Shown piece after piece: positions 7,294 through 12,951 of a stretch of DNA of 59,899 nt. Source of the DNA: Herpetosiphonaceae bacterium (GTDB lineage Bacteria; Chloroflexota; Chloroflexia; Chloroflexales; Kallotenuaceae); assembly GCA_036402055.1 (NCBI GenBank), contig DASWTQ010000297.1:1-59899 (forward strand), written 5' to 3'. Both the position numbers and the translations under genes were made by a program. Under the pieces are notes generated by a model. The model was not told where the DNA came from. It worked only from the letters and a program-made list of their open reading frames with translations, and made no database searches. Every line of letters starts with the position of its first letter. The first letter of the stretch is position 1.

Positions 7294-10200
7294 ATGACTC
7301 TTCTGATGCACCGCCGTGCCGATTCCCGAACAGAGTGGCCCTCACTGGTCGACCTCCTGCGCTGGCGTGCGACGGATCAACCGGAGCGACAAGGCTACCG
7401 CTTTTTGCTGGACGGAGAAAGCCAGGCGGTCGACCTGACCTACGGCGAATTAGATCGACAGGCTCGGCGCATCGGCGCGCTGCTCCAGCATCTGGAGGCC
7501 AATGGCGAGCGTGCTCTGCTGCTGTATCCGCCGGGCCTTGACTATATCGCGGCATTCTTCGGCTGCGTGTACGGCAACGTGATCGCCGTTCCAGCCTATC
7601 CTCCACGCTTCAACCGCAATCTGTCCCGCCTGCAAGCGATCGTAGCAGATGCTCAGGCCGCGATCGTGCTGACGACGTCCGCGATTCTGGAAGATGTCGA
7701 GCGGCGCTTTAGCTATTGCCCCGACCTCCAAGCGCTGCGCTGGATCGCGACCGACGGCGCGATCGAAGCCGATGCTGGTAGCTGGCAACCGCCCGCAGTG
7801 ACCGGCGAGACGCTGGCGTTCCTGCAATACACCTCGGGCTCGACCGGCCAGCCCAAGGGCGTGATGCTGAGCCACGACAACTTGCTGCACAACTCGGCGC
7901 TGATTCAAGCGTGCTTCGAGCATACAGCCGACAGCCGGGGCGTGAGCTGGCTGCCGCCCTACCACGATATGGGCTTGATCGGCGGTGTGATCCAACCACT
8001 CTACAGCGGCTTTCCCGTGACGCTGATGGCTCCGGTCAGCTTCTTGCAGCAGCCCGTGCGCTGGCTCCAAGCGATCTCACGCACCAGGGCCACAACCAGC
8101 GGCGGGCCGAACTTCGGCTATGATCTGTGCGTCCGCAAGATCAAACCCGAAGAGCGCGCCGAGCTGGATCTGAGCAGCTGGGATCTCGCCGCGAGCGGCG
8201 CGGAGCCAGTACGCCAGGAGACGCTGGAGCGTTTCGTGGCGACGTTTGCCGAGTGCGGCTTTCGGCGCGAAGCGTTCTATCCCTGCTACGGCCTGGCCGA
8301 GGCGACACTGATGGTTTCCGGCGGGCGCAAGGACGCCGCACCAGTGGTGCAAAAGGTCGAGCGAACGGCGCTGGAGCGCGGCCAAACGTGTGCCGCGCGC
8401 GCCGATGATCCGGCCGCGCACACATTGGTCGGCTGTGGGCAAAGCCTCGCCGACCAGCGGATTATGATCGTCCAGCCCGACACGCAGACTCCCTGCGCGG
8501 TGGATCAGATCGGCGAGATCTGGGTGGCCGGGCCGAGCGTGGCCCAGGGCTACTGGAACTGGCCCGAGATGACCGATCAGACATTTAGAGCGCGCATCGC
8601 CGCGACTGGCGAAGGGCCGTTCCTGCGCACCGGCGACCTGGGCTTTATGCAGGACGGCGAGATCTTCGTCACCGGGCGGCTCAAAGATCTGATCATTATT
8701 CGCGGCCGTAACCACTATCCCCAGGACATCGAGCTTACCGTCGGCGAGAGCCATCCAGCGCTGCGTCCCGGCTGTGGCGCGGCCTTCACTATCGAGGTCG
8801 ACGGAGCCGAGCAGCTGGTCATCGCCCAGGAGGTCGAGCGCCAGCACCGCCATGACGACCTCGACCTGCTGATCGGCACGATTCGCCAGGCCGTCGCCGA
8901 GCAGCACGATCTCCATGTCTATGCCGTGGCGCTGTTGAAGCCGGGCAGCATCCCTAAAACGTCAAGCGGCAAGATCCAGCGCCATGCCTGCCGAGCAGGT
9001 TTCCTTGAAAATACACTGGCGATCATTGGCCAGAGTACGCTCGACGGCTTCGATCGGGAGCAGAGCGAGCTACGCCTCAACCGTGCTGAGCTGATAGCGG
9101 CAGAGCAGGCCGCGCAACCCGCGCTGGTGACAACCTACCTGCAACATCAGGTAGCGCGGGCGCTGGGTGTTGCGCCGTCACGCATCAACGTGGAGCAGCC
9201 GCTGGTCGCTCTGGGCCTCGACTCGCTGATGCTGACCGAGGTGAAGCATAGCCTGGAGACCGATCTCGAAGTCGATCTGCCGCTCTCTGCCTTCCTTCAG
9301 GGCGCGAGCCTGCATGGCCTGTCGCGCCAGATCCTCGCTCAGCTGAGCGACGTACCTGCGGCTTCACGTACGCGACTGGCCCCGGTATCAGCAACCGCGA
9401 ACGAGCATCCGCTTTCGCACGGCCAGCAGGCGCTCTGGTTTATGTATCAGCTTGCGCCCCAAAGTACAACCCATAATCTAGCATTCGCTGCCCGAATTCG
9501 CTCGGAGCTGGATCGTCCGGCGCTGCGCCGCGCCCTGCAAGCCCTCGTCGATCGCCATGCCGCCTTCCGTACGGCATTTGCCATCAGTGAGCGCCGGCCC
9601 GCGCAGCAGATTCGCGCCGATGGACAGATCGCGTTCGAGGAGATCGACGCGACATCCTGGGATGAAGCCCAGCTCCGGGATCAGCTTCACGCCGCCGCGC
9701 GTCGTCCCTTCGATCTCAAGCATGACGCCCTGCTGCGCGTGTGTATCTTCGCTCAACCGGCGCGGAACCATCTGCTGCTGGTCGCGCCGCATATTGTGGC
9801 CGATTTCTGGTCGCTGGCGGTGCTGATGCGCGAGCTTGGCGAACTGTACGCCGCCGAGCAAACCGGCAAGCAGGCCGCCCTTGACTCGCTCAGGCTCCAG
9901 TACACCGATTATATTGATTGGGAAGCGACCATGCTGGCCAGCGCCGAGGGCGATCAGCATTGGAGCTACTGGCAGCAGCAGTTCGCCGATCTTCCGCCTG
10001 CCTTGAACTTGCCCACCGATCGTCCGCGCCCGCCGGTACAAACCTATGCCAGCGCCGTCGAGCGCTTTAGCTTGAGCACGGAGCTGACCCAGCAGCTCAA
10101 GACTCTCAGCGAGGGTCAGCAGGTCACGCTTTACACCACGCTGCTTGCCAGCTTTCAAGCTCTGCTGGCGCGCTACAGCGGGCAGGAAGATCTGGTAGTT

Positions 10201-12951: not shown

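Follow-up and report, generated by a model that had tools for sequence, protein, structure and literature searches.

Biosynthesis of nonribosomal peptides from a lipid-glycerate start has been textbook knowledge for specialists since 2018. According to publications on vioprolide from Cystobacter violaceus, a FAAL activates a fatty acid, an FkbH domain loads glycerate and a C domain esterifies the glycerate with the fatty acid; the acyl group is cleaved off at a later stage (PMC10099666, PMC8949500, PMC12397197). These modules 1-2 are organised as FAAL-ACP / C-FkbH-PCP (Auerbach et al. 2018, as cited in PMC8949500 and PMC12397197), and eight further NRPS modules and a TE lead to a cyclic peptide. 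Corramycin synthetase ComK of Corallococcus coralloides starts with FAAL-ACP-C-HAD-T; its FAAL is active in vitro and glycerate incorporation has been proposed, as have radical-SAM C-methylation of the glycerate and acyl removal in what is a 12-module NRPS-PKS pathway (PMC10099666). In cystomanamide module 4 (C-FkbH-PCP), the C domain condenses onto glyceryl-S-PCP to give an ester, but here a peptide serves as donor instead of a FAAL-loaded fatty acid, the module being an internal one (PMC9581180, PMC8949500). The final cystomanamides include glycosylated lipopeptides, with the sugar listed as fructose in reviews (analogues C and D). Finally, the stand-alone FkbH/OzmB enzymes of methoxymalonyl-ACP and tetronate pathways are discrete proteins of ~360 aa that work with separate ACPs in PKS pathways; they have a HAD DxDxT motif and a Cys-containing half, they transfer glycerate to a carrier, and a glyceryl-S-enzyme intermediate is part of the OzmB mechanism (PMC9057759).

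We analysed a stretch of 59,899 nt from a Herpetosiphonaceae bacterium (contig DASWTQ010000297.1, hereafter the window), which encodes a starter synthetase with the five domains of the vioprolide start in identical order (Table 1). This likeness to vioprolide modules 1-2 lies in the description of the domains (PMC8949500, PMC12397197). The original prediction had placed the novelty of the starter module too high, as the start has been published for vioprolide and for corramycin; its mention of an acylated-glycerate start with later deacylation in vioprolide is confirmed by the three publications cited above. The analysis shows domain content, motifs, fold and gene linkage, and from these the chemical steps are inferred. 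Considering the domains and the neighbouring genes together, we think that the starter probably initiates a small thiotemplate pathway leading to a glycosylated O-acyl-glyceroyl-D-aminoacyl amide, which would be a glycolipid-like lipo-amino acid.

Table 1. Features of the window around the starter gene (nucleotide positions; aa positions of domains refer to the starter protein).
Feature	Position	Strand	Remarks
UDP-galactopyranose mutase (Glf)	3889..5076	-	TIGR00031, 396 bits against a cut-off of 303.75
Small conserved ORF, divergent from the glycosyltransferase gene	5167..5508	-	113 aa if translated from the Met at 5508; weakly similar to PRC-barrel/DUF2171
GT1-family (MGT / sterol-glucosyltransferase-like) glycosyltransferase	5973..7202	+	stop codon 92 nt upstream of the starter start
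Starter synthetase FAAL-ACP-C-FkbH-PCP	7294..12951	+	1885 aa, one chain; Pfam and NCBIfam
FAAL domain	7342..9024	+	aa 17-577; NCBIfam FAAL models
ACP	9121..9345	+	aa 610-684; LGLDS, Ser644
Condensation domain	9400..10734	+	aa 703-1147; PF00668, E 2e-99
FkbH unit	10747..12351	+	aa 1152-1686; N-terminal subdomain, HAD phosphatase and GNAT-like half
PCP	12646..12840	+	aa 1785-1849; GGHS, Ser1812
NRPS C-A-T-E-C (ORF2)	12965..19177	+	2070 aa; begins 13 nt past the starter stop codon
Four-gene sugar ABC importer	19584..24273	+	best matches galactofuranose transporter YtfQ/YtfR/YtfT/YjfF, all four below curated cut-offs and two tied with arabinose or ribose permeases

The starter gene occupies an open frame that extends from 7216 to 12951; translation from the ATG at 7294, with AAAGAAAGAGG just ahead of it, yields the 1885-aa chain. 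Domain matches in Pfam and NCBIfam confirm that a FAAL with its own ACP, a C domain, an FkbH unit and a PCP are joined in one polypeptide, and all the catalytic motifs examined in this polypeptide are present. The best profiles for the first domain are PRK05850, PRK12476 and FadD32, fatty-acid-AMP ligase models with E values of 1e-139 to 1e-131 versus 5e-98 for the best CoA-ligase model, and none of these scores reaches its equivalog cut-off, a threshold set for mycobacterial orthologs. The C-terminal subdomain of the FAAL corresponds to PF23024. Motifs A5 and A7 are separated by 113 aa, compared to 94 in the A domain of ORF2 and 87 in GrsA, and the ~20 extra residues after motif A5 are consistent with a FAAL-specific insertion. 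In the first step of the proposed pathway this domain would adenylate a fatty acid and charge the ACP that follows it in cis.

The FkbH-type unit had been predicted at 10753-12315, and the borders that we obtained differ little (Table 1). It matches TIGR01686 with 304 bits, above the curated cut-off of 146.65 (E 1e-90), over aa 1352-1670 and profile positions 4-320 of 323. The DxDxT core predicted as DCDHT is indeed found as HAD motif I at aa 1357-1361 (nt 11362-11376), and the further HAD motifs TKNN, PKSEN and FLDDS are present at aa 1402, 1435 and 1456, respectively. In 12 FkbH homologs, D206, D208, T210, N253, K285, D307 and D308 are invariant and K252 is conserved in at least 90%. Also invariant in 12 homologs is Cys1620 (nt 12151-12153) of the C-terminal half, located in the sequence LLSCRVLGR, which we take to be the residue of the glyceryl-S-enzyme intermediate. 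An AlphaFold2 model of aa 1152-1686 has a pLDDT of 84. When this model was searched with Foldseek, its first ~360 residues matched the N-terminal part and phosphatase of BF1531 (PDB 3SLR; TM 0.79), a match that is also seen at the sequence level, and its last ~160 residues matched GNAT acetyltransferases (TM 0.6-0.76), so that the predicted GNAT-like half is borne out by the model and its fold matches. In contrast to the discrete FkbH/OzmB proteins, the unit is embedded in an NRPS and has an extra N-terminal subdomain of ~200 aa, which is also present in BF1531. A genome scan with the FkbH alignment, which covered at least 511 FkbH loci, revealed no locus with an identity above 53%. The named relatives belong to Chloroflexota, Acidobacteriota and Cyanobacteria, and the nearest starter homologs are on metagenome contigs.

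By analogy with characterised FkbH enzymes, the unit would take a glycolytic phosphoglycerate and hold it as a thioester on Cys1620, the HAD half would strip the phosphate, and the glycerate would be passed to the predicted cognate carrier, the PCP with Ser1812 located C-terminal to FkbH in cis. The substrate is 1,3-bisphosphoglycerate in the case of OzmB, and D-3-phosphoglycerate is reported for the vioprolide domain. In the third step, the C domain between the two carriers would use a hydroxyl of the glycerate as nucleophile. Since glycerate has no amine, the acyl-glycerate bond can only be an ester, and the best-supported mechanism for the starter, judged from the analogous systems, is an ester-forming C domain that makes O-acyl-glyceryl-S-PCP. 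Glycerate loading, ester formation and regiochemistry at the starter are all proposed by analogy, vioprolide being the one initiation unit of this type for which the esterification has been characterised. The sequence contains everything that such a start calls for: an FkbH score above cut-off, the HAD motifs, the Cys, both carrier Ser residues and the His and Asp of the C domain.

The motif of the C domain is not HHxxxDG but PHIVADFWS (nt 9787-9813), in which PH replaces HH; the catalytic second His (His833) and Asp837 are retained. PHxxxDFWS is conserved throughout the clade of GT1-linked starters (window, P0002, P0003, P0004, P0122, L088 and L092), and PHxxxDF marks this clade only. We considered DFWS as a signature of ester-forming C domains and rejected it: the sequence is also found in amide-forming FAAL-linked C domains and is therefore not diagnostic for ester formers. 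In an unbootstrapped NJ tree the C domain groups with amino-acid-acylating C domains linked to FAALs, to which it is 49-55% identical, and its sequence thus bears no mark of an ester former. The FkbH-coupled C domains fall into at least three separate clades in such a tree, also without bootstrap, and kinship with the C domains of vioprolide and corramycin is therefore not to be assumed. The PHxxxDF motif in place of HHxxxDG and the N-acylating members of its clade could also be explained if the C domain does not acylate glycerate, such that glycerate would enter unacylated and the FAAL-ACP would pass its acyl group to another site, such as the sugar or the side chain of an amino acid. We consider this very improbable because the catalytic His and Asp are kept, the complete motif is conserved across the GT1-linked clade, the protein has just two carriers, with this domain between them, and in vioprolide an identical arrangement carries out the esterification.

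The glycosyltransferase, starter and ORF2 genes have the same orientation and an operon-like spacing (Table 1). Scans for promoters and terminators in and around it returned no signal exceeding that of shuffled sequence. The pair of GT1 and starter genes is found in at least five independent contigs, with glycosyltransferase identities of 63-86% in P0002/P0240, P0003/P0243, L088/L089 and L092/L093, and the genes downstream of the pair, where visible, differ from those of the window. Within the cassette, conservation is highest for the glycosyltransferase (63-96% identity) and the peptide part is variable. A sequence identical to the window's glycosyltransferase was found only on a 1.6-kb Logan contig. 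In the fourth step of the pathway that we favour, this adjoining, co-oriented GT1 would most likely attach a sugar to the hydroxyl of the acyl-glycerate that is still free, possibly galactofuranose produced through the neighbouring Glf. The glf gene is on the strand opposite to the starter gene; a copy with 77.5% identity adjoins the P0004 starter homolog in L007, and none lies within 10 kb of the starters of L088 and P0003. We infer that the sugar ABC importer may be part of the cluster. The small ORF between the glf and glycosyltransferase genes is 54% identical to the ORF directly upstream of the starter gene in L004, an orthologous cluster in a Herpetosiphonaceae MAG.

The glycosyltransferase could alternatively serve in self-protection or inactivation, as enzymes of the MGT/OleI/Rgt type do, or act on an unrelated lipid, in which case the glycerate would not be decorated. 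Its best named NCBIfam matches are indeed the antibiotic-inactivating glycosyltransferases Rgt, MGT and OleI, and JGI annotates its homologs as sterol 3-beta-glucosyltransferase. However, the NCBIfam scores of 45-123 bits fall far short of the cut-offs (260-800), and the similarity is therefore at the family level only. Moreover, the gene is always directly upstream of the starter and is the part of the cassette that varies least, and a GT4 takes the equivalent place in other FkbH-PCP loci, even fused to an NRPS or TE. Hence, we regard a role in self-protection or on an unrelated lipid as improbable.

These GT4 genes directly follow FkbH-PCP in ~25 of 80 related FkbH loci. In L004, whose FAAL and FkbH are 65% and 51% identical to those of the window, the C-A-T-E-C protein begins with a fused GT4 domain at its N-terminus. 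All three annotated GT4-linked loci, which are from Acidobacteriota MAGs, end with a GT4-TE fusion; L061 has the arrangement FkbH-PCP / GT4 / GT4-TE, and FAAL-ACP-C is added in L086 and L080. No description of GT-linked FkbH cassettes was found in the literature searched, a search outside which most subscription journals lie. What appears new is not the start but the conserved coupling of the lipid-glycerate start, and of FkbH-PCP units generally, to glycosyltransferases. The window has a stand-alone GT1 in this role, a Chloroflexota MAG has a GT4-NRPS fusion, and the three Acidobacteriota MAG loci have GT4 plus GT4-TE.

The original prediction had the starter pass its product to the next NRPS. 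That protein is present in the form of ORF2; what had been overlooked, besides the conserved glycosyltransferase and the Galf-related genes, is that it comprises just one module and ends in a C domain. The T domain contains GGDSI, the E domain NHLAIDG and EGHGRE, and the terminal C domain, which is of the DCL type, HHLLLDG; there is no final T or TE. The predicted difference in downstream architecture is also correct, as one amino-acid module and a terminal C domain stand against the eight further NRPS modules and TE of vioprolide; the conserved glycosyltransferase and Glf set the window further apart from vioprolide. No radical-SAM gene, as proposed to act in corramycin biosynthesis, is present in the window. 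The A-domain code, extracted against a GrsA fragment, is DTENIGTVEK, which matches no specificity known to us; acidic residues at positions 239 and 331 hint weakly at a basic side chain. ORF2 of L004 shares the code DTENIGT (identities of 53% for C, 61% for A, 49% for E and 43% for the terminal C domain) and it too has the terminal C domain.

We propose as the fifth step that the C-A-T-E-C protein would amidate the glycerate carboxyl with one amino acid and epimerise it to D. The terminal C domain would then release the chain onto a nucleophile from outside the ORF2 protein, most likely a free amine. Release onto free amines by a terminal C domain has precedent: malleobactin, bicornutin, rhabdopeptide/xenortide and glidonin (module 13) assembly lines all have a terminal C domain without a functional A-T-TE after it (PMC10587159), which makes this a possible release mechanism for ORF2. 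Different from those systems, no amine-forming gene is visible in the window, where neither an acceptor-amine gene nor a decarboxylase gene was found near ORF2. An Orn/DAP/Arg-type decarboxylase is encoded upstream in L004. Free-standing carrier proteins and Btr-like genes are absent from the window and are located upstream of the cluster in L004.

A second assembly line, a PKS-NRPS, is encoded on the minus strand of the window (32743-59899). Orthology between this line and the neighbours of starter homologs was considered, and none was found. The intact DCL-type C domain at the end of ORF2, which lacks T or TE, raises the question of whether all these genes form one large cluster. In that case the starter and ORF2 would initiate the minus-strand line, the terminal C domain would join the chain in trans to an aminoacyl-T protein encoded there, and the TE that ends a 3583-aa NRPS would free a long lipo-glycerate peptide-polyketide. 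It fits this idea that the minus-strand line leaves the window with A-T as its first visible domains, and that the homologous E-C pair of the P0056 locus (L005) continues in cis with A-T. A B12-radical-SAM gene adjoins the starter in the P0056 locus, which looks more corramycin-like. Yet the two gene sets are convergent and 9 kb apart, separated by the sugar importer, a methyltransferase, unknown genes and a GC dip. In addition, the C-ended NRPS of L004 is followed by an MFS gene and then an alpha/beta hydrolase / peptidase S9, with no further NRPS in the 2.6 kb shown, and relatives of the starter occur without minus-strand orthologs nearby, the identities being the generic ~50% of any PKS/NRPS domains. 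A single large cluster is thus distinctly unlikely, and we retain the short pathway ending with ORF2.

An alpha/beta hydrolase gene is also located upstream on the P0003 contig. Hydrolases in these near relatives, together with a membrane-anchored M28 peptidase at 28360-31467 in the window, speak for an alternative that differs from our proposal in the fate of the acyl group alone; the working of the module is the same in both. The fatty acyl ester might be a transient cap, hydrolysed during or after export, which would leave a non-lipidated (glycosyl-)glyceroyl peptide as the mature product. Such a loss of the acyl group has been published for both characterised pathways with the module, vioprolide and corramycin (PMC10099666, PMC8949500). 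Against it, no hydrolase was found within 3889-19177, the M28 gene is 9 kb off and beside the other assembly line, a one-amino-acid backbone would be very small for an antibiotic warhead, and the compact FAAL-ACP-C-FkbH-PCP / GT4 / GT4-TE cassettes of L086 and L080 resemble lipid makers and not makers of peptide prodrugs. A transient cap is therefore rather unlikely, although it deserves more weight than the alternatives above, and we prefer a product that keeps its acyl group. The window cluster has only three biosynthetic genes (~13 kb), and this makes the hypothesis directly testable.

To our knowledge, in-line or PCP-directed glycosylation is very rare in NRPS enzymology. Tentatively, the window might hold one form of a thiotemplated route to glycosylated glycerate lipids that is widespread and apparently undescribed; in this route, glycosyltransferases would act on carrier-bound (acyl-)glyceryl-S-PCP. 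The minimal form of such a route may be FkbH-PCP / GT4 / GT4-TE, and the window and L004 may further amidate its product with a D-amino acid. If the sugar does join carrier-bound glycerate, the cassette would be a portable "glyco-lipid cap" for lipopeptide engineering, and glycolipid-like surfactants or envelope lipids would be the assembly-line products of these clusters. If true, this route would be the assembly-line counterpart of glucosylglycerate and glycoglycerolipid biosynthesis, with glycosylation in line or directed at the PCP.

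The longest ORF in the frame of the starter gene covers positions 7216-12951. It contains an ATG at 7294, the start proposed in the original prediction, which is preceded by AAAGAAAGAGG and results in a protein of 1885 aa (ORF1). Pfam and NCBIfam models established that this single chain contains five units in the predicted order FAAL-ACP-C-FkbH-PCP (see the table), and both carrier serines, Ser644 and Ser1812, are kept. The FAAL-specific insertion sits between motifs A5 and A7; the spacing between these motifs is 113 aa in the starter versus 94 aa in the A domain of the next NRPS (ORF2) and 87 aa in GrsA, corresponding to about 20 extra residues.

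Features of the window and of related loci
Feature	Position	Strand	Evidence and remarks
UDP-galactopyranose mutase (Glf)	3889-5076	-	TIGR00031, 396 bits vs cut-off 303.75
Small ORF, 113 aa from Met at 5508	5167-5508	-	weak PRC-barrel/DUF2171 similarity; divergent from GT
GT1-family glycosyltransferase (GT)	5973-7202	+	Pfam EryCIII-like_C, Glyco_transf_28; family-level matches to MGT, Rgt
Starter FAAL	aa 17-577		best models PRK05850, PRK12476, FadD32 (E 1e-139 to 1e-131); PF23024, C-terminal subdomain
Starter ACP	aa 610-684		Pfam/NCBIfam; Ser644 in LGLDS
Starter condensation domain	aa 703-1147		PF00668, E 2e-99
Starter FkbH domain	aa 1352-1670		TIGR01686, 304 bits vs curated cut-off 146.65
Starter PCP	aa 1785-1849		Pfam/NCBIfam; Ser1812 in GGHS
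ORF2	12965-19177	+	C (HHIITDAWS), A, T (GGDSI), E (NHLAIDG, EGHGRE), C (HHLLLDGWS)
Four-gene sugar ABC importer	19584-24273	+	directly after ORF2; best NCBIfam matches YtfQ, YtfR, YtfT, YjfF
P0002 contig			GT P0240 (86% identity) upstream of starter homolog
P0003 contig			GT P0243 (72% identity) upstream of starter homolog
L088/L089			GT (77%) upstream of starter homolog (FAAL 64%, C 59%, FkbH 56%)
L092/L093			GT (63%) upstream of starter homolog
L086	6494-15614		FAAL-ACP-C-FkbH-PCP, GT4, GT4-TE
L080	6575-15531		FAAL-ACP-C-FkbH-PCP, GT4, GT4-TE
L061	9941-15455		FkbH-PCP, GT4, GT4-TE; lacks lipid-loading part

The ~200 aa separating the C domain from the TIGR01686 match are kept in all homologs (ATFTAEP...FAPYNQVFQQLLDP) and align to the N-terminal part of crystal structure 3SLR; judged from these alignments, this stretch is therefore not a linker. 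In an AlphaFold2 model of aa 1152-1686 (mean pLDDT 84), the initial ~360 residues fit onto 3SLR (N-terminal part of BF1531 together with the phosphatase; TM 0.79) and the last ~160 onto GNAT acetyltransferases (TM 0.6-0.76); this bears out the description of the unit as a DxDxT core joined to a GNAT-like half. Among the 12 homologs aligned, there is no variation at HAD residues D1357, D1359 and T1361, in the conserved Lys and DD motif, or at Cys1620 in LLSCR, and together with a TIGR01686 score above the cut-off this confirms an FkbH-like unit with its catalytic residues. At two other loci (L090, 11208-12161; L091, 1500-2453), a 64%-identical GT1 homolog is followed by a 317-aa protein with just two parts, the FkbH N-terminal subdomain (47% identical to residues 7-205 of the FkbH unit in the window) and a PCP. 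Because the HAD and GNAT halves are absent there, the N-terminal subdomain may have a separate role of its own.

The C domain of the starter contains the motif PHIVADFWS instead of the canonical HHxxxDG; it retains the two residues believed important, namely the second His and Asp. As the only nucleophiles of glycerate are hydroxyls, and by analogy to known systems, this domain should make O-acyl-glyceryl-S-PCP, and the ester linkage proposed in the original prediction is thus supported by analogy. For the FkbH enzyme OzmB, the chemistry runs from phosphoglyceryl-S-enzyme through dephosphorylation to carrier transfer (PMC9057759). The vioprolide start shares all five domains of the starter, and the precedent named in the original prediction is borne out by passages of PMC8949500 and PMC12397197: a FAAL module loads a fatty acid, a C-FkbH-PCP module loads glycerate, an “ester bond-forming C domain” couples the two, and the acyl group is lost later. 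The acyl group may likewise be a prodrug handle here, as in vioprolide and corramycin, which fits the proposed mechanism. The lipid-glycerate start module itself is not novel, since it has already been published for two pathways.

The nearest full-length homologs of the starter, each ~1880 aa, are P0002 (75%), P0003 (57%), P0004 (56%), P0007, the Nostoc protein P0008 (50%), Herpetosiphonaceae P0043 (48%), and P0056 (44%). Over the first 60% of the starter, FAAL-ACP-C-A-T lipopeptide starters match equally well. In a neighbor-joining tree without bootstrap, its C domain falls within a clade of FAAL-linked C domains in which members feeding A domains (49-55% identity) are mixed with members feeding FkbH, and the C domains of other FAAL-ACP-C-FkbH proteins (P0043, P0139, P0147, P0152 and P0158; P0056) fall in other clades. 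The DFWS variant is common to the starter and its amide-forming relatives, and PHxxxDFWS is specific to the GT1-linked subclade. By sequence, then, the starter C domain is no special “ester” type, and on this tree the acceptor appears to have been swapped repeatedly between amino acid and glycerate.

The co-oriented GT gene is located 92 nt upstream of the starter gene, and GT homologs are present directly upstream of a FAAL-ACP-C-FkbH-PCP gene at four other independent places; the GT is more conserved than the synthetase. Where the contig reaches far enough past the starter, the genes that follow differ. On the P0003 contig the starter is followed by C-A-T and, after that, a longer NRPS that includes a luciferase-like domain, and at L088 by an MFS gene and then C-A-T-C-A-T, both unlike the C-A-T-E-C of the window; the P0002 and L092 contigs stop short of the next genes. 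Because the GT-starter pair recurs while the downstream genes differ, the gene order links the GT with the lipid-glycerate unit and not with the peptide part. The GT might instead be a resistance enzyme, but its scores against resistance-enzyme families are far under the cut-offs, and this linkage also speaks against such a role.

ORF2 begins 13 nt past the stop codon of the starter gene. The GGDSI motif of its T domain is the usual form ahead of an E domain, its A-domain code is DTENIGTVEK, and no T, TE or R domain closes the protein. Malleobactin, bicornutin, rhabdopeptides and glidonin provide precedents for a final C domain that releases the chain onto a free amine (PMC10587159). The product is therefore predicted to be glycosyl-O-acyl-glyceroyl-D-Xaa-X. 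In L004, a locus of a Herpetosiphonaceae MAG, the gene after starter homolog P0043 encodes a 2466-aa GT4-C-A-T-E-C protein (15610-23010) related to ORF2 (identities: C 53%, A 61%, E 49%, terminal C 43%), and the first seven positions of the A-domain code (DTENIGT) are the same. Its GT4 domain (aa ~1-420) forms an N-terminal fusion with the NRPS; to our knowledge, GT domains are very rarely integrated into an NRPS. Upstream, L004 encodes free-standing carriers and a decarboxylase, which were not found in the window. The L004 genes there are butirosin-like: BtrH_N, two ACPs, acyl-CoA dehydrogenase-like genes, a PLP enzyme and an Orn/DAP/Arg-type decarboxylase. The small ORF of the window is 54% identical to an L004 ORF (9367-9702, minus strand) directly upstream of the starter gene of that locus.

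A second assembly line leaves the window end on the minus strand (32743-59899), comprising A-T, two PKS modules, C-A-T and (C-A-T)x3-TE. ORF1 and ORF2 might start this convergent line, but 9 kb of other genes lie in between, the L004 counterpart of ORF2 likewise ends after its last C domain and is not followed by an NRPS within the 2.6 kb covered, and no orthologs of the minus-strand genes were found near the starter relatives. In both minus-strand PKS proteins the Pfam match to KR (aa ~1150-1360) precedes those to DH (aa ~1375-1665), which implies the order KS-AT-KR-DH-ACP, unlike the usual one. Downstream of the minus-strand NRPS-TE are a gene for a 1035-aa protein with an N-terminal membrane domain (DUF2306) and an M28 peptidase (28360-31467, minus) and, adjoining it, a 434-aa ORF (31464-32768, minus) lacking a Pfam match and 27% identical to an MFS_3 exporter of L004. 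Located between or beside the two clusters are an isoprenylcysteine-carboxyl-methyltransferase-family gene (24494-25138, plus) and two plus-strand ORFs without Pfam or NCBIfam match (26410-28224, 604 aa; 2095-3279, 394 aa). The GC content is 53-59% in the flanks and transporter region (1-6000, 19000-26000) and 61-67% in both synthetase regions (6000-19000, 28000-59899).

In L007, a Glf copy 77.5% identical to that of the window is located at a distance of 2.5 kb from the P0004 starter. For the importer, the first two galactofuranose-transporter matches are clear and the two permeases score equally well against ribose or arabinose permeases, all four components scoring below the NCBIfam cut-offs. 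Because Glf and this YtfQ/YtfR/YtfT/YjfF-like importer flank the cluster, galactofuranose (Galf) is a plausible candidate for the sugar, though the support is weak.

With the GT4 domain of L004 as probe, we surveyed the best 80 FkbH loci (L008-L087) of at least 511 in a genome scan, and in about 25 of these 80, FkbH-PCP is immediately followed by one GT4 gene or two. The three annotated loci (L061, L080 and L086), from Acidobacteriota MAGs (Terriglobia, Solibacteraceae, Bryobacteraceae), all encode a GT4-thioesterase fusion. That a GT can be fused with the next NRPS or with the thioesterase for release suggests sugar addition to glycerate that is still carrier-bound, and the FkbH-PCP/GT4/GT4-TE cassette has the appearance of a thiotemplated pathway to (acyl)diglycosyl-glycerate. 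Full-text literature searches, whose coverage is incomplete, found no paper on FkbH-PCP/GT cassettes. At another locus, L005, a B12-binding radical-SAM gene (5283-6914) and an aspartate decarboxylase gene (4829-5218) immediately precede the gene for starter homolog P0056; since the former recalls ComJ, proposed to C-methylate glycerate in corramycin biosynthesis, this locus may be corramycin-like.

The window thus contains a conserved variant, apparently undescribed in the searched literature, that couples a lipid-glycerate start to a glycosyltransferase, and probably to Galf supply; this start is predicted to feed a single D-amino-acid module ending in a C domain. The variant also belongs to a much wider FkbH-PCP/glycosyltransferase association.
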